Below are positions 1 through 12,543 of a stretch of DNA of 25,960 nt, one piece after another. Positions within the stretch are counted from its first letter, which is position 1. Each line of letters begins with the position of its first letter. Made by a program: the position numbers and the translations under genes. The notes under the pieces are model-generated. The model searched no databases and was not told the DNA's origin. It was given only the letters and a program-made list of their open reading frames with translations. Origin of the DNA: a virus; the UHGV virus genome UHGV-0396296; one strand, written 5' to 3'.

Positions 1-680
1 TTTATGTTTTCGCCATCCACTTTTGCAGATTTTACGTCCATGATGTGCCATTTTCCACGCTCATCTCGTTTCCATTCCGCCAAAACTATGTAACACCCCA
101 ACGCGCCCTTTGCCCTTCCTTCTATACCTGTGGCAACAGCAACTGATTCTTTACCTTCAACCGTTGCTGCGCTCTGGTCGCCGGTGTTTGTTGCTGCGCT
201 CCAGTCGCCGGTGTTTGTCGCTGCGCTCCAGTCGCCGGTGTTTGTCGCTGCGCTCCAGTCGCCGGTGTTTGTCGCTGCGCTCTGGTTGCCGGTGTTTGTC
301 GCTGCGCTCTGGTTGCCGGTGTTTGTCGCTGCGCTCTGGTCGCCGGTGTTATTACTTTTCTCTTTTTTCCAATCCACCCGATTCAGCGTAAATTTTACAA
401 ACGCATCGACTATTCCCTTTATCCCGATTTCGGCGTTGATTTTTATCCGCTTTCCGCAGCGTTTACTATCGCTACTTTCTTCGTCAGCAACATCACTTAG
501 TTCAACCTCACAATATCGGCTATCTGCCGGCGGATAATAATTAAACACATCTATGGGGTTCTCACATGCATGGAAACCGCACTCACATAGTTCTGCACGA
601 TTTTCTTCGTATTCTTTGCCAACCTCATATTGGAAATCACGACACCTCAGGTCTTCATTAAATCCTTTATATGCTTTCAT
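1..680 (-). CDS. Partial CDS (3' end beyond window start): phage protein with conserved N-terminal domain (MKAYKGF...CECGFHACENPIDVFNYY) and 7 tandem nonapeptide repeats TNTGD(W/Q)SAA
   Basis: ATG at 680-678 on the minus strand preceded by GGAGGAAAT, overlapping the upstream stop (ATGA). Hand translation of the minus frame is open from 680 to position 1. Not in the ORF track because it runs off the window. The plus-strand ORFs 110-391 and 130-537 are mirror artefacts of the repeat. Confidence 0.6.
   Translation of the reverse strand, partial: MKAYKGFNEDLRCRDFQYEVGKEYEENRAELCECGFHACENPIDVFNYYPPADSRYCEVELSDVADEESSDSKRCGKRIKINAEIGIKGIVDAFVKFTLNRVDWKKEKSNNTGDQSAATNTGNQSAATNTGNQSAATNTGDWSAATNTGDWSAATNTGDWSAATNTGDQSAATVEGKESVAVATGIEGRAKGALGCYIVLAEWKRDERGKWHIMDVKSAKVDGENI
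165..350. repeat. 27-bp tandem repeat, about 7 copies (gctgcgctc[c/t][a/g]gt[c/t]gccggtgtttgt[c/t]), in frame within the 1-680 CDS
   Basis: Direct reading of the sequence. Unit length is a multiple of 3. Variants change the encoded residue between D/N and W/Q. Confidence 0.9.
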
Positions 681-1057
681 ATTTCCTCCCCGTATTCGCA
701 CCTAAATTCAATATAATCATCTTGTTCATCCATAATTTTTTCGAATGCTTTCGCCTGTTTATACAGCTTTATGAAATCCTCCAGTCTCACAGTCGCTTTC
801 CATTCCTTACCGTTTTTCCGATGGAATACCGCCGGGATTTCGCCCCTTGCGTCTCTCTTGGACTGCTCCATAGCCTTTTCGATGTTTAACGCCTCCACAC
901 GCTTAACCTCGATATGTACTCCCGGCAGCCCCACTACGTCGGCATCGCCATTCGCCCCCGAATATTGCTGCCCGCGTCGTGCATCGTATCCGTATCCCCG
1001 CAGTATCTTGGCGATTTCTCGTTCTCCCTCTGCGCCCTTGCGCCTGCTGTTTGTCAC
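677..1057 (-). CDS. PD-(D/E)xK nuclease, Holliday-junction-resolvase-like (Hjc/RecU-type)
   Basis: ORF of 126 aa. N-terminus MTNSRRKGAEGEREIAKIL and motif D...VHIEVKRVE (D ... E-x-K) are typical of archaeal-type resolvase-like phage proteins. Stop overlaps the downstream start. Confidence 0.55.
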   Translation of the reverse strand: MTNSRRKGAEGEREIAKILRGYGYDARRGQQYSGANGDADVVGLPGVHIEVKRVEALNIEKAMEQSKRDARGEIPAVFHRKNGKEWKATVRLEDFIKLYKQAKAFEKIMDEQDDYIEFRCEYGEEI

Positions 1058-1293
1058 GTCCTAACCTCCATTCTTTTTAAATCCTTCACATCCTGGATCA
1101 CTCCGATCAATTCCGCTACCATCAGTTCCATTCTTCGTTCTGATAATCTCAACACTATATCAGGTGTTACTATTGCATATTCACCGTCGTCATAGATGTA
1201 CAGCAGCCCTTTTGCGTTACTGGCAACAACGTACATCCCTAACGTTTCCGCTTTGCTTGCGATCTGTACTATGCTCTGTTTCATGTTGCCCAT
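1054..1293 (-). CDS. Hypothetical phage protein (79 aa)
   Basis: ORF in the operon, ATGA-type overlap with the next gene. No motif recognised. Confidence 0.45.
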   Translation of the reverse strand: MGNMKQSIVQIASKAETLGMYVVASNAKGLLYIYDDGEYAIVTPDIVLRLSERRMELMVAELIGVIQDVKDLKRMEVRT

Positions 1294-2539: not shown

Positions 2540-2872
2540 TTAATCACCCCGCCCCCACTCTCTGGATATCTGGTTGTCTAATATCCGTATTTGCAGTTTT
2601 ATGGAATTGATATTTTCCTGGGCGGTTTTATACATCGTTTCAGCAATGTCACGCTTTAATCGTTTATCAGCGCAGTCGCCGTATACAACTTTGTCTATCA
2701 GCGTTACGGGCATACCGGAATCCCGGCGGACAAGTGCTTGTTTCTTCAGGTCTAATTTGTAATCGTGTTCTGCTTTGGCGTATTCCCTGCCGTACTTGGC
2801 CATCAGCCGGATAGCCTCGTTTAATCGCTCTGTCAAATCATTCATTTCGTTTATCATCGACAGTCCGCTCAT
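2540..2872 (-). CDS. Hypothetical phage protein (110 aa)
   Basis: ORF translationally coupled to its neighbours. No motif recognised. Confidence 0.45.
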   Translation of the reverse strand: MSGLSMINEMNDLTERLNEAIRLMAKYGREYAKAEHDYKLDLKKQALVRRDSGMPVTLIDKVVYGDCADKRLKRDIAETMYKTAQENINSIKLQIRILDNQISREWGRGD

Positions 2873-3153
2873 AGGTAGTTCCTCCCAAAAATTCTCATAA
2901 AGTCTTCTCTTGTTCCGTGAACTTTTTCAAACGCCTCTTGCCCTTTTTTATGAAGATATTCCATATTTTCTTTGTTGAAATGAACGCCGTTCGGAGGCTC
3001 ATTATGCCAATAATGATTTAAATAAACCCATAGTCCGTATTTTTCCGACAATTTTCTATTGGCTCCTTGGTATAGATGATGTTTTTCCAACCAGTCTGTT
3101 CTGCCGCTTAAATAGCATACCTTTTCAGACTGCATAATACTCTTTGCCATCAC
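2869..3153 (-). CDS. HNH-like nuclease-motif protein (94 aa)
   Basis: Motifs LEKHHL ... GLWVYLNHYWHNEP resemble the HNH beta-beta-alpha core (HH ... N ... H). The canonical Cys pairs are incomplete. Confidence 0.4.
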   Translation of the reverse strand: MMAKSIMQSEKVCYLSGRTDWLEKHHLYQGANRKLSEKYGLWVYLNHYWHNEPPNGVHFNKENMEYLHKKGQEAFEKVHGTREDFMRIFGRNYL

Positions 3154-3703
3154 CTAACACCTCATTTCTATACGTTATTGCACAATTAAGACTTTCAAAA
3201 GTTTTACATATTTCTAAGCTTTTGATGCATACACGGTACATTCCATTCTTTTGGCGGTGTATGTACTTTTCTCCAGTATTCGTTTTTTTACATTTTGTTT
3301 TTGGCTTGCGCATATGTTTTGCCGAATATTTAATATTCTTTGCCTGTGTTGTAATTTCTAAGTTAGAAGCTTTATTATTTAACGTGTCGTAATCAATATG
3401 GTTAATGACTTTATCTTGACCAACACACCCTAAAAACGCTTCTGCCACCAACCTGTGTACGTAGTGATTTTTTTTCACATATAATCCGTTATATTCACGC
3501 CTAAGCCCCACTATTTTATATCCATTTCCATTATCGGTCGGTGTTAATAACTGCCCCTTAATTCGCCTTTCCATGGATTTTCCCCACTGAGTGTTGTTTT
3601 GAGTTATAATTCTGTCAAGAGACCTAACGTTTCCCAAGTTGCTAACCTGATAAAGTCCTTCATATCCCAGTATATCTCGCCATTCTTCCTCAAGCCTTTT
3701 CAT
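3125..3703 (-). CDS. HNH homing endonuclease with NUMOD4-type N-terminal motif
   Basis: 192-aa ORF. WRDILGYEGLYQVSNLGNVRSL is a NUMOD4-like motif, and HRLVAEAFL...INHIDYDTLNN is HNH_3-like. The gene is visibly more AT-rich than its flanks and overlaps both neighbouring genes. Confidence 0.75.
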   Translation of the reverse strand: MKRLEEEWRDILGYEGLYQVSNLGNVRSLDRIITQNNTQWGKSMERRIKGQLLTPTDNGNGYKIVGLRREYNGLYVKKNHYVHRLVAEAFLGCVGQDKVINHIDYDTLNNKASNLEITTQAKNIKYSAKHMRKPKTKCKKTNTGEKYIHRQKNGMYRVCIKSLEICKTFESLNCAITYRNEVLGDGKEYYAV

Positions 3704-4319
3704 CTGCCTCTCCTTTCAAGTCTGCGTAAACCTCCTTGAATCGTTCCACTGTGGTGTCTTTGCCCAGTTTGTAGTCTTTGGACAGTTCAGATGCCTTTAT
3801 GCCCTTCTCGTTTGCCAGTTCCAGCACCTTGCCCCTCCAAATTTCACGCTCTTTTATATCACTTACAACCTCATCCCGGCTCTTTGCGGCGGCTTTCCGT
3901 CTATCCTCGACACTTCCATCAGCTTCGTCCGGCAAATCCTCCCCTGCGTACACATACAGCCCCAGTCCGTGCCTTGCAACAGCTTTTGTCAGGCTCCTTT
4001 GGATAGCTTTGTTCACGTCAAAGCTGGTTACCATGTCCGCTGGGATGGACTTGTTGCGATAGTCCATTACCGGCAAAAACTCTATATGTTCAATTTCGAA
4101 ATCGTCAGTTACAACAGTTACCCCCGTTTTTACCCAACACGTCTTATTGTCAGAAAAGTAGTTCCACTCCAGATCGTTTTGGTAGACGGTATAATAGCTT
4201 CTCGGGTATCGTTTTTTTAGTTCCTTCCAGGCGTTGGCCCACGACAAATACGATAAATCCTTCTTTTTCTCTATCATGCTCCCGCAGTCAACGCTGTTTA
4301 GTTCCTCAAAATAGTTCAT
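3690..4319 (-). CDS. Putative single-strand annealing protein (Rad52/Sak-like, DUF1071-type), uncertain
   Basis: 209-aa ORF with LSYLSWANAW and HGLGLYVYAGEDLP motifs and an acidic/charged C-terminal tail. Family assignment is from memory only. Confidence 0.4.
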   Translation of the reverse strand: MNYFEELNSVDCGSMIEKKKDLSYLSWANAWKELKKRYPRSYYTVYQNDLEWNYFSDNKTCWVKTGVTVVTDDFEIEHIEFLPVMDYRNKSIPADMVTSFDVNKAIQRSLTKAVARHGLGLYVYAGEDLPDEADGSVEDRRKAAAKSRDEVVSDIKEREIWRGKVLELANEKGIKASELSKDYKLGKDTTVERFKEVYADLKGEADEKA

Positions 4320-5683: not shown

Positions 5684-6346
5684 ATGACCGGATTCAAATG
5701 TCCATATTGTAATTCTGTTTTTCCTTTGACCAGAGATACTCTCCGAGAATGCAAGGCCTATTTCGATCCGCCTAAACCTTACGAAGCTGCTGACAACAGC
5801 GGCATAAATATTTCATTCTACAAATGCCCAAATTGCAACGAATATATAGTGCGTGCTCAAGGCTTTGGTAAACAGGTTCTTGATATAAATTCACAACTGC
5901 GCCCGCTATCTTCCGCAATACAATTCCCTGATTATGTTCCGGAGTCCATACGACAGGACTATAGCGAAGCCTGCGCTATCGTTAATCTCAGTCCTAAAGC
6001 ATCCGCCACTTTATCTCGCAGGTGTCTACAAACTATGATTCGCGACTTCTGGGGCATTACCGAAGCAACGCTTTACAAGGAAATCGAAAGTCTCGACACT
6101 ATTATTCCTTCTACACAGAAAAAAGTACTTCATAGCCTTAGACAAATCGGCAATATCGGTGCCCACCCTGAAGCTGATATCAACACAATCATTGATATCG
6201 AACCCGGCGACGCTGAAAAGCTCATTAAGGTTATCGAGTTCTTTGTTGATAAGTGGTACATCGATCGCCATGAGCAACAGCTTCTGTTTGATGAGATCAA
6301 TAATCTCAACGATGATATGCAGGATAAAAAGAAATCTGATGAGTAG
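5684..6346 (+). CDS. Zinc-ribbon plus DUF4145-domain protein (candidate defence or accessory gene)
   Basis: 220-aa ORF on the opposite strand to the surrounding early operon. N-terminal CPYC...CPNC pairs. C-terminal LHSLRQIGNIGAHPE and SRRCLQTMIRDF match recalled DUF4145 features (lR..GN.gaH). Confidence 0.6.
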   Translation: MTGFKCPYCNSVFPLTRDTLRECKAYFDPPKPYEAADNSGINISFYKCPNCNEYIVRAQGFGKQVLDINSQLRPLSSAIQFPDYVPESIRQDYSEACAIVNLSPKASATLSRRCLQTMIRDFWGITEATLYKEIESLDTIIPSTQKKVLHSLRQIGNIGAHPEADINTIIDIEPGDAEKLIKVIEFFVDKWYIDRHEQQLLFDEINNLNDDMQDKKKSDE

Positions 6347-6617: not shown

Positions 6618-6821
6618 TCATTGACGAGCAAAAAAAATTTCTTCTACTGACGTACCGTAATATTCTGCAAGTCTTATTTTAATTTCATCACGCGGCACTC
6701 TTTCGCCATTTTCATACATTGACAATGCCGATGGGCTTATACCTGTTGCTCTTGCTACTTCCTCCTGGCTTTTGGCGCCTCGAAGTTTTACAAGTCTTTC
6801 GGATATTACGCTCTTGTCCAT
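6618..6821 (-). CDS. Cro-like XRE-family HTH regulator
   Basis: 67-aa ORF. SQEEVARATGISPSALSMYENGERVP is a canonical XRE HTH. Transcribed divergently from the CI-like gene, towards the replication genes. Confidence 0.7.
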   Translation of the reverse strand: MDKSVISERLVKLRGAKSQEEVARATGISPSALSMYENGERVPRDEIKIRLAEYYGTSVEEIFFARQ

Positions 6822-6847
6822 TGTTCTGCACCTCCTTTCACATCATG

Positions 6848-6925
6848 ATTATATCATTCGCCACAAATCGTGTCAACACATTTTGTGGACTTTTTCTTTA
6901 CTTTTTCCACGAATCGTGTTATTAT
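6848..6925. promoter_or_regulatory. Divergent switch region: consensus leftward promoter (TTGACA-N17-TATAAT on minus), weaker rightward promoter, and three operator-like sites
   Basis: Minus strand -35 at 6871-6876 and -10 at 6848-6853 with a 17-nt spacer. Direct repeats CCACAAATCGTGT (6861-6873) and CCACGAATCGTGT (6907-6919), plus inverted partner ACACATTTTGTGG (6876-6888). Confidence 0.5.
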
Positions 6926-6954
6926 TTGCGTACACCACATATGGAGGGATAGCA

Positions 6955-7266
6955 ATGTCAAAGTTTTCAACGGTTTTTAAAAATTTAAGAATCAATAACG
7001 GATACACGCAACAGGAGCTTGCTAATAGACTTGGCGTTTCACGCAGTGCCGTTGGTATGTATGAAAATGGTGAGCGTGAGCCTGATTTTGAAACGTTAGA
7101 GGCAATAGCTGATTTCTTTAATGTGGACATGGACTATTTAATGGGTAGGAGTAATAAAATCACAACTATCGCCGCCCACCATGAAGGCGAAGAATGGACA
7201 CAGGAAGAACTTGATGAGATAGAAGAGTTTAAGAAATTTGTGAAATCAAAAAGAGATAATAAGTAG
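6955..7266 (+). CDS. CI-like XRE-family HTH repressor
   Basis: ATG 6955 preceded by GGAGGG. YTQQELANRLGVSRSAVGMYENGEREP is an XRE HTH. Followed by an ImmA-like gene. The track ORF start at 6772 is upstream of the promoter region. Confidence 0.7.
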   Translation: MSKFSTVFKNLRINNGYTQQELANRLGVSRSAVGMYENGEREPDFETLEAIADFFNVDMDYLMGRSNKITTIAAHHEGEEWTQEELDEIEEFKKFVKSKRDNK

Positions 7267-7320
7267 TGTCCATACTTTTGGACACTGGGGTCGATATAAT
7301 ACTTTTGGGGAGGTGTTACC

Positions 7321-7704
7321 GTGACGAAGTACGAAGAACTTATGGCAAGATACGACAATCTCCACATCGAGGAACGACCCATGAAAAATGATGGTCTGTA
7401 CGCTGATGATTGTATCTGGATCAATAGGAACATGCCGGAATGCCGCCGGTATTGCACGCTTGCAGAAGAGATCGGACACTATGAGACCAGCGTTGGAGAT
7501 ATATTGGATCAGACCAATACGAATAACCGCCGGCAGGAGCGAGCTGCCCGCAAGTGGGCATACGAGGAAATACTGCCAGTCGAAAATATATTATTCGCCG
7601 CTCAGGATGGACACACTGATATATGGGACATGGCAGAATACTTAGAAGTAGACGAAGCATTTCTAAAGGATGCTTTAAGGCATTATGGGATTTTAGACAT
7701 ATAA
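7321..7704 (+). CDS. ImmA/IrrE-family (M78-like) metallopeptidase homologue with non-canonical EEIGH motif
   Basis: 127-aa ORF, GTG start after GGGGAGG. Pattern IWINRNM...RRYCTLAEEIGHYE...WAYEEILPVE matches ImmA family architecture, but the first His of HExxH is Glu. Confidence 0.6.
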   Translation: MTKYEELMARYDNLHIEERPMKNDGLYADDCIWINRNMPECRRYCTLAEEIGHYETSVGDILDQTNTNNRRQERAARKWAYEEILPVENILFAAQDGHTDIWDMAEYLEVDEAFLKDALRHYGILDI

Positions 7705-7782: not shown

Positions 7783-8262
7783 ATGAGTGAATTTAATGAG
7801 AAACCTAAAAAGAAATTTTATAAGCGTTGGTGGTTTTGGCTAATAGTGGCCGTGGTAGTCATCGGCGTAGGTGGTGCCGCCGGGAGCGGCGGTGATGATC
7901 CTGCCGATACAAAAACAGCGCAAACCGAGCAAACAGAAGAAGCGACAGAGGCAACAGAAGCAACGGAAGCCCTCACGACCGGACAAAGAAATGCTCTCGG
8001 CTCCGCAGAGTCTTACCTTTCCGCTATGCCGTTCTCATATTCAGGGCTAATAGAACAGCTTGAATATGAAGGATACTCAACAGAGGACGCTACTTATGCC
8101 GCTGACAATTGTGGTGCAGATTGGAATGAACAAGCTGCGTTATCCGCAGAGGATTATTTGGATATTATGTCTTTTTCGCGCGACGGGTTAATAGAGCAGT
8201 TGGTATATGAAGGCTTTACGCAGGAACAAGCTGAATATGGTGCATCCGCTGTTGGTTATTAA
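7783..8262 (+). CDS. ltp: Ltp-family surface lipoprotein/membrane protein (superinfection-exclusion type)
   Basis: N-terminal TM segment WWFWLIVAVVVIGVGG, TEATEATEATEA linker, and two tandem Ltp repeats (AESYLSAMPFSYSGLIEQLEYEGYS...DNCGADWNEQA and AEDYLDIMSFSRDGLIEQLVYEGFT). RBS AAAGGAG. Confidence 0.75.
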   Translation: MSEFNEKPKKKFYKRWWFWLIVAVVVIGVGGAAGSGGDDPADTKTAQTEQTEEATEATEATEALTTGQRNALGSAESYLSAMPFSYSGLIEQLEYEGYSTEDATYAADNCGADWNEQAALSAEDYLDIMSFSRDGLIEQLVYEGFTQEQAEYGASAVGY

Positions 8263-8474
8263 GAATAACAAATAATGTAAAGCCATTTAAACGAAAAAAG
8301 GGGTATTGAGATTGTGGGTTGATAGCTTTCTGCAAACGACGTATATGATATTTTTTAACCGCAAATTAGTACTAAATTTCAAGAAAACAGTAATTTTTTT
8401 CTTGAATATATAAGTTTTTGTATATTATGCTAAACATTTTCAGCATTTCAATAACAAAAAAGTAACAATAAACA

Positions 8475-8503
8475 TTGACATTTTAAAGCGCTCAGCGTAT
8501 TAT
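8475..8503 (+). promoter_or_regulatory. Candidate promoter upstream of the Abi gene (TTGACA-N17-TATTAT)
   Basis: Hexamers read directly in an AT-rich intergenic region. Confidence 0.4.
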
Positions 8504-8516
8504 AATATTAACAGAT

Positions 8517-8580
8517 CCCGCTGGGCTTCTAGGATATCTTTGATATCCAAGCAAAAATACAGCGGGCCTTTTGCTTTTTT
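8517..8580 (+). terminator. Terminator-like hairpin in the leader of the Abi gene (outer stem CCCGCTG/CAGCGGG, inner GGATATC-TTT-GATATCC, then TTTTGCTTTTTT)
   Basis: Read directly. Lies between the candidate promoter and ATG 8596. Confidence 0.4.
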
Positions 8581-8595
8581 GGGAGAAACAAAGTA

Positions 8596-9501
8596 ATGGA
8601 TCAAAAACCATACAAAACAATTGATGAACAAGTTGAAATTTTAAAAGACCGCGGGTTAATCATAAGTGATGAGGATTATGCAAAACGGTGTCTTACTCAA
8701 CTCAATTATTATCGTTTAAGTGGCTATACTTTGACATTACGAAAAAATAATAGCTTTTACAAAAACATAACTTTTGAAAACGTAATGGATATATATAACT
8801 TTGATCGTCAACTTAAACTTTATGTGTTAAATTATCTTGAAGACATCGAAATATCGTTGCGTACTCACATAGGTTATATTTTAGGAAGCATGGATTCAGA
8901 CAAACCAGCGTATCTTAATGCTGGTTGCTATATAAGCGATGCTCATTACAACAGAGTCCTTGAAGAACTGAAGGATGCCCTTGCTGACAGTAAAAATGAA
9001 GCCTTTGTAAAGCACCACCAGACAAAATACCGCGGAAGCCTTCCTTCATGGGTAATGGTCGAAACATTATCGTTCGGAGCGCTTTCAAGACTCTTTTCAT
9101 CGCTTAAGCAAGACATAAAATGTGACATCTGTGATGCTTATTATAACCAAATCCGCCCACAAGTTGTTGAAAATCTTCTAGAAGGTTTAGTTGTTCTTCG
9201 TAATATATGCGCTCATCATTCCCGCATATATAATCGAGGCATCCCAAACACACCTAAGATGTCTAAAGTAGATAATGATTTTTTTATAGATAATGGATAT
9301 GAGCGAAATGAAATAGGAAAAAAATTATTCTTCAGACTCGTAATCATAGACCGATTGATAGAGGATGCTAATTTTTTAAGCAAAATGATATCTGATATAG
9401 ATGCATTGTCTTATAAATATCCTTTTGTTCAACTCAGGCATTATGGTTTTAAAGCAGACTGGAAAAACATGGTTTCAGAAATTAATAAACAATATAAATA
9501 A
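8596..9501 (+). CDS. Abortive infection protein, Abi_2 family (AbiD/AbiF-like)
   Basis: 301-aa ORF. KTIDEQVEILKDRGL, LNYYRLSGYTLTLR, HHQ...LPSWVMVETLSFGALSRLF and LRNICAHHSRIYNRG match recalled hallmarks of Abi_2 proteins. The gene and its upstream region are markedly AT-rich. Confidence 0.8.
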   Translation: MDQKPYKTIDEQVEILKDRGLIISDEDYAKRCLTQLNYYRLSGYTLTLRKNNSFYKNITFENVMDIYNFDRQLKLYVLNYLEDIEISLRTHIGYILGSMDSDKPAYLNAGCYISDAHYNRVLEELKDALADSKNEAFVKHHQTKYRGSLPSWVMVETLSFGALSRLFSSLKQDIKCDICDAYYNQIRPQVVENLLEGLVVLRNICAHHSRIYNRGIPNTPKMSKVDNDFFIDNGYERNEIGKKLFFRLVIIDRLIEDANFLSKMISDIDALSYKYPFVQLRHYGFKADWKNMVSEINKQYK

Positions 9502-9692: not shown

Positions 9693-10877
9693 ATGCCAGG
9701 AACGAAACAGAAACGAGGAACAGACAGCTGGACCCTGCACGTCAGAGCCGGCACTGATTTTAGGGGAAAGCCCATAAGATATACCAAAACAGTACACTGC
9801 AAAAGCGAAGCAGCTGCAGACAGGGAACTCGCCCTGTTTTATGCAGATTGCGTAAACGGCCGGGTCAACAGATCTACACCTATAACAGTAGCAGAGCTTG
9901 CCGACCAGTGGTATGAAGAGTACGTACTGCGGCACTTAAAGGTCAGCGCCCGGCGTGGCATAGATCCCGCCATAAAGATGTGGATAAAGCCACTACTTGG
10001 AAATAAGAAGGTTTCTAAAGTACAGCGCCTCGATGTGCAAAAATGGGTAAATTACGTTTCCGATCCGCAGGAGCGTACGAACAAGAGGGGCGAAAAAGTT
10101 ATAAAGCAGCTCTCCCCTAAGACTGTACGAAATTACTACTCTGCGCTTCGCGGTATGTTTGATTTTGCGGTCGATATGGGGATCATCGAGGACACTCCCT
10201 GTAAAAATATCCGTATGCCGAAAAAGGATCATAAAGAGGCCACCTACTTTTCTATAGAGGAAGTAAATGTCCTTCTAGAAGCCCTGAGCGCCTTACAGAG
10301 CGACGAACTGCGCTACAAGGTAGCGATTTACCTCGGGCTGTTTGGCGGCCTCAGGAAAGGTGAAATAATGGGATTAAACAGAGAGGATATTAACTTTGAG
10401 CGAGGCGAAATAGCAATCCGGCGTACAAGGATGATAAAACCGAAGGAAGGCGTCTACGAAGACACGCCCAAGACGGATAAATCCATAAGGACGGTCGCCC
10501 TACCTCCGGAGGTTATGGCAGAGATCCTGTGCCTGATCGCGCAACAAAAGGAGCAGAAACTGCAGCTTCAGAACCAGTACCATGACTCCCCTGCCCTGCT
10601 CCGTAACGACCACGGGGACCCACTGTACCCGCAGGTGCTGCAGAGGTGGTTTACCCGATTCCTGGAGAAAAATGGCTTACCTCACGCTGGCCTGCATTCT
10701 CTAAGACACACACACGCCTCAATGCTCGTATATCTTGGTACGGATAAAATGCAGGTCAGCTCCAGACTGGGTCACTCTCAGCTATCGACTACGCTAAATA
10801 TTTACACGCACTTATTTGAAAACGCCGACAAAAAAATAGCGGAAGATCTGTCATCGAACTTCCTAAAAGCTCGCTAG
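9693..10877 (+). CDS. int: Tyrosine site-specific integrase (phage integrase family)
   Basis: 394-aa ORF. C-terminal catalytic signature LFGGLRKGE...HSLRHTHASMLV...LGHSQLSTTLNIYTHL (R, H-x-x-R, Y). N-terminal SAM-like region. Confidence 0.9.
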   Translation: MPGTKQKRGTDSWTLHVRAGTDFRGKPIRYTKTVHCKSEAAADRELALFYADCVNGRVNRSTPITVAELADQWYEEYVLRHLKVSARRGIDPAIKMWIKPLLGNKKVSKVQRLDVQKWVNYVSDPQERTNKRGEKVIKQLSPKTVRNYYSALRGMFDFAVDMGIIEDTPCKNIRMPKKDHKEATYFSIEEVNVLLEALSALQSDELRYKVAIYLGLFGGLRKGEIMGLNREDINFERGEIAIRRTRMIKPKEGVYEDTPKTDKSIRTVALPPEVMAEILCLIAQQKEQKLQLQNQYHDSPALLRNDHGDPLYPQVLQRWFTRFLEKNGLPHAGLHSLRHTHASMLVYLGTDKMQVSSRLGHSQLSTTLNIYTHLFENADKKIAEDLSSNFLKAR

Positions 10878-11189: not shown

Positions 11190-11333
11190 TTATTCGGCAG
11201 GTTTTTCCTTTTTTGCCATCTCCCTAACGTCTTCGATAGCCTTCTTTACTTCGTCCATATCCTTACAGGCTGCGAATTTATCGGCTACCAAATTAAGTAT
11301 CACTTCCATCTGCTTATCCGTCATATTCTCCAC
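11190..11333 (-). CDS. Small hypothetical protein (about 47 aa; ...MTDKQMEVILNLVADKFAACKDMDEVKKAIEDVREMAKKEKPAE)
   Basis: Hand-translated. Below the ORF track length cutoff. AAGGAGG RBS 5 nt before in-frame GTG 11333 (ATG at 11324). Followed by a terminator. Confidence 0.35.
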   Translation of the reverse strand: MENMTDKQMEVILNLVADKFAACKDMDEVKKAIEDVREMAKKEKPAE

Positions 11334-11393
11334 AGCGCCCTCCTTTCTCCGCTTGCCCGGTTATTACCGTCCGGTTTCCCTTTCGGTAATTAT

Positions 11394-11422
11394 AATATAC
11401 ACTATTTTTTATATTTTGTCAA
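11394..11422 (-). promoter_or_regulatory. Near-consensus promoter (TTGACA-N17-TATATT) for the small ORF
   Basis: Read on the minus strand. Spacer is similar to those of the two promoters at 11707-11805. Confidence 0.4.
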
Positions 11423-11464
11423 TGTGTTTTTATATATTATTTTATATTTTTTATACTTTTTCGT

Positions 11465-11683
11465 TTATATTATAGGCTCGCCCGTTTCTTTGTCGATGAA
11501 TTGTATTCTCAGCTCTGCGTCGAATGCCTCCGCAATTTTTTCCAATTCAGACACCTTAAACGTGTTCCGTTTGTATTTATTGTTTAAATTCTGCGGCGTT
11601 TGTCCTGTACGCCGAGCAAGTTCCGCTTCCGACATATTTCCTCTTTTAACCCTACACAGATTTATATATTCTCTGACATTCAT
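11465..11683 (-). CDS. XRE-family HTH regulator (72 aa)
   Basis: MSEAELARRTGQTPQNLNNKYKRNTF is an HTH. GGAGGT RBS 6 nt before the ATG. Confidence 0.6.
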   Translation of the reverse strand: MNVREYINLCRVKRGNMSEAELARRTGQTPQNLNNKYKRNTFKVSELEKIAEAFDAELRIQFIDKETGEPII

Positions 11684-11706
11684 ATGCTGACCTCCTTCCT
11701 CTTTTG

Positions 11707-11735
11707 ATTATACACTATATTTTATAATATGTCAA
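11707..11735 (-). promoter_or_regulatory. Consensus promoter TTGACA-N17-TATAAT driving the HTH gene
   Basis: Minus strand -35 at 11730-11735 and -10 at 11707-11712. Confidence 0.5.
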
Positions 11736-11776
11736 AAAAAGAATTTAAATAATATAAAATATTTTATAAAAAACCG

Positions 11777-11805
11777 TTGACAGAATATAAAATTACGTGT
11801 ATAAT
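11777..11805 (+). promoter_or_regulatory. Consensus promoter TTGACA-N17-TATAAT driving the small acidic ORF
   Basis: Plus strand -35 at 11777-11782 and -10 at 11800-11805. Divergent from the promoter at 11707-11735. Confidence 0.5.
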
Positions 11806-11928
11806 ATAATCACAAGGTGAGATAAGGAGGCAATACCATCTCAGTAATGCACTGGGAACAGGTGCAAAAAGAGTTGACACTATAAATAATATATGGGATA
11901 TTGTAAAAAACAAGAGGAGGATAAAAAA

Positions 11929-12162
11929 ATGAAAAAGATGTTTTTAGAAAGTAACGGCTATAACATGATAGGTTTTATATTCGAAGATAATAAAATGGTG
12001 GCATTCGATTGCGAAACATTAGAAGACGCAAAGAATATGGACTGCTCGGGCGTGGAAGGCTGCAAGAGCGCAGAAGAAGCCGCTGTGGACTGCGATACCG
12101 AAGTTTATCCGTTTATTGAAGATGAGTGGGAAAACGTTACATTTATAGAGGAAATGGAATAG
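11929..12162 (+). CDS. Small acidic Cys-containing protein (77 aa), hypothetical
   Basis: ATG 11929 lies 8 nt after GAGGAGG. The track start at 11893 has no RBS. Protein is rich in D/E. Confidence 0.5.
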   Translation: MKKMFLESNGYNMIGFIFEDNKMVAFDCETLEDAKNMDCSGVEGCKSAEEAAVDCDTEVYPFIEDEWENVTFIEEME

Positions 12163-12203
12163 CATAAAAAATCCCCGGCCTTCGCCGGGGACGCTCTATT
12201 TTA
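12163..12203. terminator. Bidirectional terminator (CCCCGGC-CTTC-GCCGGGG hairpin with A-run upstream and T-rich downstream)
   Basis: Read directly, between convergent genes. Confidence 0.55.
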
Positions 12204-12543
12204 TATATCCATCTTTGCCCACATAGTAGGGATTCCATTTTGTGCGAACCTTTACAATGGGTAATTCTTTGCATTTTTCATATATCTCTGTCCCTGTTCC
12301 GTTTCCACCAAGTCCGTGATAGCCCTGGTAGATTTCTGTAAGGGTTTCCATTTCTTCAAACGTTATTTGATCGGTTTCGATATAGAATTGGCCGTATCTG
12401 AACAGACGATCATGCCCGTTCGCCCGAACGGCTATTGTCAAGGCCCTAAATCGTCGTATCACCCATGCCAGGGTGCCAGCCGCAAAACTGGCAACCCCCG
12501 CACAAAATATCTCTATCCAATTTTCCAGTATACTTTCCCACAT
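12196..12543 (-). CDS. Membrane protein appended to the lysis cassette (N-terminal TM helix), function unknown
   Basis: ORF directly follows the endolysin stop. Hydrophobic segment WIEIFCAGVASFAAGTLAWVI. Start is either GTG 12552 or ATG 12543. Confidence 0.45.
   Translation of the reverse strand: MWESILENWIEIFCAGVASFAAGTLAWVIRRFRALTIAVRANGHDRLFRYGQFYIETDQITFEEMETLTEIYQGYHGLGGNGTGTEIYEKCKELPIVKVRTKWNPYYVGKDGYIK

Follow-up and report, generated by a model that had tools for sequence, protein, structure and literature searches.

The window, the whole stretch of 25,960 nucleotides of viral genome UHGV-0396296 analysed here, is from a temperate phage and includes part of its early recombination and replication operon; the HNH gene and the parts mapped around it all lie on the minus strand. 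Within this operon is a free-standing, I-HmuI-like HNH homing endonuclease gene encoding 192 residues (3125 to 3703). The gene starts with ATG and is preceded, 3 nt upstream of the ORF, by the Shine-Dalgarno sequence AAAGGAGAGG (3707 to 3716), which serves the HNH gene here and, as seen in junction alignments, drives the 95-type allele of a small gene in relatives lacking the HNH gene. Upstream, a 14-nt overlap (3690 to 3703), already noted in the first-pass annotation, joins it to the gene for a 209-residue Sak single-strand annealing protein (3690 to 4319; Pfam SSAP_Sak, E = 1e-38). Protein and DNA comparisons show that the last ~60 codons of the Sak gene (about 3690 to 3890) recur in relatives, in annealing proteins of both the ERF and the 207/209-aa kind; this tail is the predicted left homology arm for exchange at the locus.

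Downstream lie a small gene (2869 to 3150), a conserved 110-aa gene (phrog_1389; 2540 to 2872) whose protein is identical in relatives with and without the HNH gene and which is the predicted right homology arm, and, two genes downstream, the genes for a DnaD-like helicase loader and a G39P-like loader. The HNH gene overlaps the small ORF by 29 nt, the value first reported, if the latter starts at a GTG at 3153, and by 26 nt if it starts at the ATG at 3150. The ATG is the more likely start, since a GAGGTG site precedes it and public gene calls use it (93 aa). We looked for a promoter or terminator adjoining the HNH gene and found none, suggesting that the gene is read within the early operon.

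The HNH gene is visibly AT-rich, with a GC content of 0.361 (GC3 0.34) compared to 0.43-0.53 (GC3 0.47-0.65) for eleven neighbouring genes, and it falls in the lowest 7% of 579-nt windows across the 25.96 kb. Equal or lower values are reached elsewhere in the window, in the Abi_2 region near 8100-9300 and in the 11200-12300 region. The low-GC unit extends beyond the gene to which it had been assigned: the downstream ORF at 2869-3150 is also low (GC 0.37, GC3 0.38), while the GC content of the 95-type allele in relatives is 0.44-0.48.

The encoded protein has the profiles, catalytic residues and overall fold of a NUMOD4/HNH_3 endonuclease of the I-HmuI type, confirming the family assignment proposed from the sequence. 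Its beta-rich DNA-binding region (residues 6-68; 3500 to 3688) matches NUMOD4 (PF07463, E = 1e-17; 64.5 bits against a curated cut-off of 23.4) and is modelled by AF2 as beta strands with pLDDT of at least 85. The catalytic core (residues 80-123, N101-H102...N114...N123; 3335 to 3466) matches HNH_3 (PF13392, E = 1.4e-9; 37.9 bits against a cut-off of 24.8) and aligns with VVDHKDGNKDNNLSTNLRWVTQKIN of I-HmuI in a search of PDB sequences. The best three PHROG families are all annotated as HNH endonuclease (E = 1e-36 to 1e-29). I-HmuI of Bacillus phage SPO1 (PDB 1U3E) is the sole significant PDB match in either sequence (E = 6e-8) or fold searches; Foldseek aligns it to the AF2 model (pLDDT 89.9) over 173 columns at 31% identity (E = 3.6e-7, probability 1.00), with a TM score of 0.47-0.52 over the full target length. 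Both proteins place an N-terminal beta-rich DNA-binding region before an HNN-type beta-beta-alpha-metal core, and the catalytic His and Asn residues align with the I-HmuI motif DH...NL...KIN, in which the catalytic His is H75. In an alignment of 50 homologues, H102, N110, N114 and N123 are invariant, but the position of I-HmuI D74, before the catalytic His, is occupied by Asn (N101) here and in at least 90% of the family.

The C-terminal module (residues 144-185; 3149 to 3274) looks unlike that of I-HmuI, which ends in a helix-turn-helix. In the AF2 model it consists of three strands (148-150, 156-160 and 165-169) and a helix (172-185), and T143, G144, K146, Y147 and I148 are nearly invariant among the 50 homologues. 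It is probably a second DNA-binding domain. Its topology is probably AP2-like; the only AP2 match, a faint one, was to another HNH gene, in the relative L053. I-HmuI also differs in being encoded by a group I intron. Neither an intron nor an intein carries the endonuclease here: Rfam found no intron or other RNA family in the window, and the gene is a separate ORF with its own stop and only 4-5 borrowed N-terminal codons.

The small HNH-fold gene

The small 93-aa gene is a low-GC 93-type allele whose product adopts an HNH (beta-beta-alpha-metal) fold, closest to the HNH domain of IscB, P1 Ref and McrA, with a beta-hairpin and helix core and an HH...N...H pattern; typical members additionally have CxxC...CxxC zinc ligands. 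The fold is revealed only by structure comparison and by scanning the family members one by one. For the small ORF, its 95-type counterpart and the 110-aa protein, Pfam and NCBIfam gave nothing meaningful, and a profile of the small-gene family found nothing among PDB sequences. The protein in the window has no match to the P1 Ref family (RecA_dep_nuc, PF16786) even at E <= 10, and only 4 of 45 members of the small-gene family match PF16786, all weakly (best E = 1.4e-4). Its fold and its context resemble those of Ref, but it is not classed as a PF16786 member. Its closest known relatives are P1 Ref, a RecA-dependent HNH nuclease (PDB 3PLW), and the staphylococcal HNHc_6 genes, which occur in modules of the order annealing protein-ssb-hnhc_6-rep.

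The first-pass annotation considered this ORF a second HNH-like gene, selfish or accessory, stacked on the first. The HNH-like fold holds. However, all relatives examined have a homologue of 93-103 aa at this position, whether or not they carry the HNH gene, and homologues are found in other ERF/Sak modules as well. Because every HNH-less relative has one, the small gene is a resident, Ref-like gene of the recombination module and should be annotated as such, not as a second homing gene.

Insertion junctions and the low-GC cassette

The first four codons of the HNH gene, ATGAAAAGGCTT (MKRL; 3692 to 3703), mark the left insertion junction and are shared with the 95-type small gene that it displaces: the small-gene alleles of HNH-less relatives start with ATGAAGCGGCTA (MKRL). 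In another pair of loci, L045 (with the HNH gene) and L051 (without), both carry ATGAAGCGG and encode MKRLK. This start is rare, occurring in 4 of 120 small-gene family members, all in the clade at the HNH site, while the commonest starts (MEIW, MEEW and MEVW) together make up 29 of the 120. The shared MKRL/MKRLK codons indicate an in-frame insertion inside the 5' end of the small gene. The idea that the gene had invaded between conserved genes is therefore replaced by insertion within the small gene. Since the left junction falls after codon 4-5 of the 95-type small gene, the HNH ORF borrows from that gene its first codons, with the start codon, and its ribosome-binding site. On the right, the junction is located within the final 35-60 nt of the small gene.

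When the window and L020 are aligned with the HNH-less loci L021 and L028, the approximate limits of the low-GC cassette fall at 2900 and 3691. This unit of ~0.8 kb comprises the HNH gene together with the small gene downstream in its divergent 93-type form; HNH-less relatives have in its place about 250 nt of normal-GC 95-type allele, and the two alleles are about 50% identical in nucleotide sequence. The same cassette limits recur in another presence/absence pair, L049 and L051. The cassette lies within a longer stretch (~2900-3800) that is nucleotide-identical in relatives with a different annealing-protein gene: compared to L010, L012, L015 and L017, identity is 98-100% across about 2850-3800, while the flanks are 80-95% identical or unrelated. 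The cassette itself is nucleotide-identical among phages whose flanks differ by 5-20%, even where the annealing-protein core is of a different type (Sak or ERF). Further patches of 100% identity occur in some relatives, for example at 1400-2150 in the comparison with L017.

These junctions provide a testable choice of target site. The candidate target region in the HNH-less allele lies around ATGAAGCGGCTA...ATTCACTGA, and homing would predict cleavage within about 50 bp of ATGAAGCGGCT in 95-type DNA.

Distribution, decay and selection

Because the relatives come from metagenome assemblies that were looked up by exact protein, the contig counts given here are neither independent nor unbiased. 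The comparison suggested by the first-pass annotation, of relatives with and without the gene between conserved flanks, yielded at least eleven HNH-less loci (L021, L022, L028, L029, L047, L048 and L050-L054), whose flanks are mostly 80-100% identical where the annealing-protein type is the same. Across two independent backgrounds, the junctions of the HNH-less loci are the same. The distribution of the HNH gene is sporadic, with conserved flanks and a definable empty site. This sporadic presence and the atypical GC content are the opposite of the uniform presence and matching composition that had been named as evidence against an invading gene.

Where the HNH gene is present, its site is constant: orthologues with 82%, 71% and 61% identity are all found between an annealing-protein gene and a 93-type gene, and the same site is used over 61-100% identity in four annealing-protein backgrounds. 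Other HNH_3 genes related to it occupy further variable sites of the same module in relatives. Annealing-protein cores are also exchanged among HNH-less relatives. Among the loci examined, a small and biased sample, no intact HNH gene is linked to a 95-type allele.

A scan of a genome collection with the 110-aa protein found two loci; the nearest genome match, a Hominibacterium faecale prophage (69% identity to the 110-aa protein), has a 93-type gene without the HNH gene and does not identify the host, and L041, a ruminal Cryptobacteroides MAG, matches the 110-aa protein at 45%. A DNA search of GenBank phages with 3.7 kb around the HNH gene gave only short matches and no useful relative; these matches (about 70-86% identity) are in the Sak genes of lactococcal phages, apart from one of 272 nt to a human faecal phage record that carries no annotation. 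In IMG/VR, the Sak and HNH proteins matched only distant loci (33-59% identity), unfit for presence/absence comparison.

Several copies of the HNH gene are decayed. It is truncated on 8 of ~37 contigs. Individual cases are a copy split into 126 and 62 aa (L045/L046), a copy with a 311-nt deletion in otherwise identical DNA (L039) and two frameshifted copies, also in otherwise identical DNA (L036, +1 A; L038, -1 A). As the two 1-nt frameshifts fall in homopolymer runs (A7 and A8), they could be artefacts of sequencing or assembly. Foreign composition and decayed copies, the signs of an invasion-degeneration cycle, are thus both present at this gene, and the filled, empty and decaying states of the site are all available in public metagenomes.

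The HNH cluster contains only 4 sequences of intact length (192 aa) and the 93-type cluster 6 variants, compared to 26 variants on at least 75 contigs for the 95-type cluster; this near-clonality relative to the diverse 95-type allele suggests that the cassette has spread recently. The dN/dS of the HNH gene is 0.21-0.36 in comparison with L042 and L044 and 0.09-0.13 with L045. Values below 0.4 indicate that the protein is still under selection, consistent with either an active selfish element or a useful phage function. Purifying selection is much stronger on the small gene (0.03-0.05 for the 93-type, from two unsaturated within-type comparisons, dS being saturated in most small-gene comparisons and few values usable), and dN/dS of the 110-aa gene is about 0.02 or lower.

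Proposed mechanism, alternatives and known systems

The HNH gene is an ordinary I-HmuI-type selfish nuclease gene in a gut prophage. We infer that it probably homes, cleaving the HNH-less allele and being copied in, with its cassette, during repair. When two phages meet in a cell, either by co-infection or because a lysogen is infected, the enzyme would bind DNA through its NUMOD4 and C-terminal modules and nick or cut the HNH-less allele in the 5'-terminal part of the 95-type small gene or close to it. The break would be repaired from the HNH-carrying genome, with the conserved annealing-protein tail as the left arm; the right arm would consist of the 110-aa gene and the 3' end of the small gene. 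Repair would insert the endonuclease gene and co-convert the linked 93-type allele, which at about half nucleotide identity may be too diverged for crossover. The only indirect sign of the biased inheritance that this predicts is the identity of the cassette in diverged backgrounds. The 93-type allele would presumably lack the target site, making the carrier immune, and the HNH gene itself would be dispensable for phage growth. I-HmuI nicks one strand and also cuts intron-plus DNA, so immunity through the 93-type allele is an assumption.

A stronger form of this mechanism is conceivable, though we regard it as rather doubtful: the endonuclease and the diverged 93-type allele could form an obligate pair of cutter and resistant target, directed against the 5' end of the 95-type Ref-like gene of competing phages, with the endonuclease persisting only when linked to the uncuttable allele. 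That no intact HNH gene is linked to a 95-type allele in our small, biased sample fits this idea. If true, the pair would be both an allele-replacement drive and a marker-exclusion weapon against a recombination gene; as a side effect, it would favour the exchange of the neighbouring annealing-protein core (Sak, ERF or the 209-aa type). More speculatively still, the small HNH protein might supply second-strand cleavage for a nicking enzyme.

The same distribution might arise if the HNH gene and 93-type allele were passive cargo, a block acquired from a lower-GC relative through homologous recombination in the conserved annealing-protein tail and in the 110-aa gene, with an endonuclease that plays no part and may be inactive or irrelevant. 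Given the mosaicism and the same conserved arms, ordinary recombination could produce the identical-cassette pattern: patches of complete identity occur elsewhere in the same comparisons, annealing-protein cores are swapped in HNH-less relatives too, and a suitable donor is plausible, as the 93-type gene of the lower-GC phage L044 (locus GC 0.41) matches its flanks (0.44). We nevertheless consider this explanation unlikely, because the catalytic residues are intact and invariant, dN/dS of 0.09-0.36 indicates selection on the protein, the same gene keeps the same site across diverged orthologues and all four annealing-protein backgrounds, the ORF is fused precisely to the first codons of the target gene, and the cassette is nearly clonal against a diverse alternative allele. 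Selection on the protein is shared by another alternative, that the enzyme has been domesticated as a DNA-end-processing or nicking partner in the phage recombination module, working with the annealing protein and perhaps also with the small Ref-like HNH protein, to the benefit of the phage. Its position right after the annealing-protein gene is kept in diverged phages, and "hnh endo" genes are listed for Firmicutes phages among the genes that follow erf (PMC8093625). Such a role is nonetheless improbable: the gene is missing from close relatives whose annealing protein (ERF or the 209-aa type) and replication genes are the same, frameshifted, split and deleted copies sit in otherwise intact modules, the GC content of the gene is foreign to its surroundings, other variable sites of the module harbour related HNH_3 genes in relatives, and NUMOD4 plus HNH_3 is the architecture of a site-specific homing enzyme, not of an end-resection nuclease.

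HNH proteins with a packaging role, aiding terminase in concatemer cutting, are common in siphophages. The packaging-type enzymes, such as the GVE2-like "HrdP" group (PMC12724721), are encoded beside terminase and portal genes and form a different HNH group, whereas the present gene lies in the early operon, has I-HmuI as its match and is missing from close relatives. We therefore reject a packaging function, the chance of which appears negligible, on position, on family and on the presence/absence distribution.

The probable homing activity has close parallels. The I-HmuI-like HNH genes in the replication modules of Skunavirus are variably present, often truncated and site-specific, and have marker-exclusion activity; they are free-standing, some lie beside Sak-like genes, and in phylogeny they group by insertion site (PMC12724721). 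The locus described here has the same pattern of variable presence, truncation and site fidelity, but its host group differs, Skunavirus comprising virulent lactococcal phages and our loci belonging to temperate gut phages of a Clostridia type, and DNA similarity is confined to a short Sak stretch. It also differs in that the insertion can be traced to the opening codons of the neighbouring gene, to which the HNH ORF is fused in frame. The SegB, SegG and MobE endonucleases of T4-like phages are known for intronless homing, in which flanking markers are co-converted (PMC2790892, PMC2330249, PMC2988022). These free-standing genes likewise lie beside conserved genes, the nuclease-plus allele has a diverged adjacent gene, and a donor block moves with the nuclease gene. 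The Seg enzymes are GIY-YIG nucleases and MobE is an HNH enzyme of different architecture; cleavage sites and biased inheritance were demonstrated experimentally in T4, whereas here we infer them.

The locus does not change the current understanding of homing endonucleases. It is a clean natural example of a homing gene in a tightly packed phage operon, one that appropriates its target's translation start and initial codons and brings along a replacement copy of that target. Nuclease genes have also been found at exchange boundaries elsewhere (PMC10448857), and the HNH gene is a further case of one at a module-exchange boundary, in temperate gut phages.

The HNH gene within the early operon

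The HNH gene (3125..3703, minus strand) is a 192-aa ORF with the ribosome-binding site AAAGGAGAGG 3 nt upstream of its ATG. The genes of interest in the window all lie on the minus strand and are transcribed in the order Sak single-strand annealing protein (3690..4319; PF06378, 1e-38), HNH gene, 93-aa ORF (2869..3150; phrog_7566, function unknown), 110-aa ORF (phrog_1389), DnaD-like loader, G39P-like loader, and PDDEXK/RusA-like resolvase. The overlaps with both neighbors claimed in the first-pass annotation are present: 14 nt with the stop of the upstream gene, and 29 nt with the small ORF if it starts at GTG 3153, or 26 nt if it starts at ATG 3150, which is preceded by a GAGGTG site and is chosen in public gene calls. 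No promoter- or terminator-like sites flank the HNH gene, and the nearest strong promoter lies at 6876-6848 (minus strand), ahead of a cro-like gene; the HNH gene is therefore read within the early operon. A search of the window for RNA families found none, and thus no group I intron.

This promoter matches the sigma-70 consensus perfectly (TTGACA, 17 nt, TATAAT, extended TG), and downstream of it is the cro-like HTH gene (6618-6821, minus strand). Divergent from it, on the plus strand, is a pair encoding an HTH repressor and an M78 peptidase (ImmA/IrrE-type); 6618-7704 is the lysis-lysogeny switch region. A 220-aa DUF4145 gene (5684-6346, plus strand) lies on the opposite strand within the early operon and is found in most relatives, although some lack it or carry a truncated form (L018, L021, L048; L numbers denote loci on related contigs). 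Within the DnaD-like gene, a 12/24-nt tandem repeat (2119-2183) encodes a repeated ATGGATSRATGGATSRATDGA linker.

The lower GC noted for the HNH gene is borne out (GC 0.361, GC3 0.34, against GC 0.43-0.53 and GC3 0.47-0.65 in 11 neighboring genes), with the gene ranking in the bottom 7% of segments of its length in a GC scan of the 25.96-kb window, but the low-GC tract spans two genes, as it includes the 93-aa ORF (GC 0.372, GC3 0.38). Other low-GC tracts lie on either side of the integrase gene (9693-10877): one adjoining it at 8596-9501 (plus strand; GC down to 0.29), with an Abi_2 (abortive infection) gene, and one at 11200-12300; both are likely accessory cargo.

An I-HmuI-like endonuclease and a resident small HNH-fold gene

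Profile search identifies the HNH protein as the NUMOD4/HNH endonuclease first proposed (Pfam NUMOD4 1e-17, HNH_3 1.4e-9), and HNH endonuclease is the annotation of its best three PHROG families (E = 1e-36 to 1e-29). The family comprises 2848 database proteins at E <= 1e-10. Among solved structures, sequence comparison finds I-HmuI alone (1U3E, E = 6e-8), and I-HmuI is again the sole significant match in a fold comparison (E = 3.6e-7, probability 1.00, 31% identity over 173 aligned columns) with an AlphaFold model built on an alignment of 50 homologues (pLDDT 89.9). The catalytic residues are intact: the family alignment shows no variation at H102, N110, N114, or N123 and almost none at N101, with H102 aligned to the catalytic H75 of I-HmuI and N123 to its metal-binding Asn. 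In the model, residues 144-185 form three strands and a helix, a topology that may correspond to an AP2-type DNA-binding module.

The 93-aa ORF belongs to a family of about 590 database proteins among which no Pfam domains were found. Many of 45 aligned members carry CxxC...(L/I)E.HH..G.NR..SE.YG....LCH..CHNEPP.G.H, which reads as the classic zinc-HNH pattern; the window protein retains H24, H25, N31, H46, H49, and H57 and one of the four cysteines, the other three being lost. Figures listed for comparisons of the small ORF are 6.7 for the IscB HNH, 5.0 for P1 Ref, 4.9 for EcoKMcrA, 4.2 for ScoMcrA, and 3.8 for Cap5. Among the 45 members, Pfam RecA_dep_nuc (Ref) matches four weakly, HNHc_6 three, and HNH_2 one. 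Given these fold and family-member matches, "HNH-like", the first-pass description, is correct as a statement of fold. The accompanying view of this ORF as a second, stacked selfish or accessory gene does not stand: the small gene is resident, with a homologue in the same slot in every relative examined. Small genes of the type linked to the HNH gene here (93-type) also occur where there is no HNH_3 gene: downstream of ERF and DUF1351 in L055, and in L040 (GC 0.52), a Hominibacterium faecale prophage. Small HNH genes between annealing-protein and replication genes are described for Firmicutes phage recombination modules (PMC8093625).

A polymorphic cassette at a fixed site

The HNH gene is polymorphic, compositionally foreign, and faithful to its site. 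An identical protein is encoded on many other metagenome contigs, mostly with an ERF-family annealing protein (195 aa) upstream instead of Sak, and with the same 14-nt overlap. Orthologues with 71% (L042), 61% (L044), and 82% (L045) identity are all flanked by an annealing-protein gene and a 93-type small gene. The presence/absence comparison suggested at the outset, performed by looking up the conserved 110-aa protein, recovered four loci without the HNH gene (L021, L022, L028, L029), with the order ERF (196 aa), 95-aa gene, identical 110-aa protein, and 232-aa or 224-aa loader; a 110-aa variant recovered seven more (L047, L048, L050, L051, L052, L053, L054), with small genes of 95, 96, or 103 aa. 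The small protein of these relatives (95-type, MKRLNSIFTDDMDHCFFTG...ERHHVFGGFNRK at its N-terminus) is homologous to the window 93-aa protein but just 40-45% identical, and is encoded by a gene of normal GC (0.44-0.48).

Where loci with and without the HNH gene are compared, DNA homology on the left spans the annealing-protein tail through ATGAA(A/G)(A/C)GGCT, then ends; on the right it returns only in the final 35-60 nt of the small gene. The same limits are found in a second, independent pair in a 209-aa annealing-protein background (L049 with the gene, L051 without), with 99-100% identity just upstream of the junction and mostly 90-100% downstream. The variable unit is therefore ~0.8 kb (~2900-3690), consisting of the HNH gene and the 93-type allele, and stands in place of ~250 nt of the 95-type allele.

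The HNH gene is joined to the 5' end of its target gene and travels with a diverged allele of it. MKRL, the N-terminus of the 95-type small gene, begins only 4 of 120 listed members of the endonuclease family, all of them in the clade at this site; 29 of the 120 start with MEIW, MEEW, or MEVW, the three most frequent beginnings. Proteins of the clade are extended at the N-terminus, by MKRL(E/K)EEW in the window, L042, and L045 copies and by (V)SKSITEEW in the L044 copy. L045 and L051 have MKRLK in common, with DNA identical through ATGAAGCGG. The L044 extension matches the N-termini of 93-type small genes (MSKSIMQ, MAESILQ), but the codons differ, making this case older or weaker. On our reading, the endonuclease ORF entered the small gene and is joined in frame to its initial 4-5 codons, and it would also use the ribosome-binding site of that gene. 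For the downstream small gene, a separate start codon with a GAGGTG site lies within the 3' end of the HNH ORF.

The ~60-aa C-terminal tail of the annealing protein (...IKERE(I/T)WRGKVLELA..KGI...ELSKDY.L.K.TT.ERFKEVY.DL.GE) is common to three unrelated cores: Sak (PF06378), ERF (PF04404), and a 207/209-aa type for which a Pfam search gave no match. It lies at 3690-3890 in the window (3' part of Sak), 3990-4183 in L020, 4540-4733 in L021, 650-833 in L042, and 3800-4001 in L045, indicating that the N-terminal core is swapped and the tail kept. A C-terminal domain common across annealing-protein families has been mentioned (PMC8093625). Relatives carry other HNH-type genes elsewhere in the early/replication module (L042 1990-2520, PF01844; L052 6556-7101, NUMOD4 and HNH_3; L053 6833-7426, HNH_3 with a faint AP2 match; L047 811-1545, HNH_3 with Sigma70_r4), so the module contains several variably occupied endonuclease sites.

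Indications of mobility and decay

The HNH gene occurs in intact and decayed states: 26 contigs carry the exact intact gene, 3 other 192-aa variants, and 8 truncated forms. The 93-type small gene is found on about 43 contigs (6 variants in the 90% cluster) and the 95-type on at least 75 (26 variants); the cassette allele is nearly clonal, the alternative allele diverse. Three decayed copies are otherwise nucleotide-identical to the intact gene: L036 has an additional A in an A7 run (~3284-3290), L038 lacks one A in an A8 run (~3468-3475), and L039 has a 311-nt internal deletion. Sequencing error could account for the two homopolymer frameshifts, as could genuine slippage; the L039 deletion and the 82%-identical orthologue of L045/L046, split into 126 + 62 aa, are harder to dismiss as errors. 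The endonuclease is under constraint (dN/dS 0.21-0.36 against L042 and L044, 0.09-0.13 against L045), weaker than that on its neighbors (0.03-0.05 for the small gene in two unsaturated comparisons within the 93-type; about 0.02 or lower for the 110-aa gene).

An invading free-standing homing endonuclease, as originally suggested, remains our main interpretation, with the geometry revised from insertion between genes to an in-frame fusion. The enzyme would nick or cut the 95-type allele near its 5' end, and a genome carrying the HNH gene would serve as repair template, with the annealing-protein tail on one side and the small-gene 3' end plus 110-aa gene on the other as homology arms; the 93-type allele would be co-converted, presumably making the carrier immune. 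Such a mechanism is the intronless-homing scheme of the T4 Seg and Mob enzymes, and the pattern agrees with the reported behavior of I-HmuI-like genes in Skunavirus replication modules (PMC12724721). The gene thus belongs to an already well-known kind of element.

Compared with four relatives carrying the HNH gene, the window is 98-100% identical over ~2850-3800 (sliding identity), while the left flanks encode unrelated proteins (Sak and ERF). On the right, identity is 80-95% in L010 and L012; L017 matches exactly along much of this flank, and L015 shows no homology beyond ~2550. Cassette identity in diverged backgrounds is not decisive alone, because other 100% patches exist, and passive mosaic exchange, by which the cassette would spread without homing, is an unlikely but serious competitor. 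That the protein is a domesticated recombination nuclease, serving the module in which it lies, seems improbable, and a packaging HNH can practically be set aside. Homing remains the preferred reading.

The window and its public counterpart, ENA contig ERZ807510 NODE_34 (L008 9119-10348), differ by an inversion of the first 1.2 kb (window 1-1257) and by one 27-nt repeat unit. Relatives such as L010 are collinear with the window. NODE_34 contains 55 nt (window 1203-1257) in both orientations, and a 428-aa 'DUF7666' ORF in it crosses the junction into antisense sequence, which suggests misassembly at the end of that contig. The 27-nt tandem repeat (166-350, at the window edge; 6.9 copies, 95% match) is probably inside a minus-strand DUF7666-like gene that is cut off by the start of the window.
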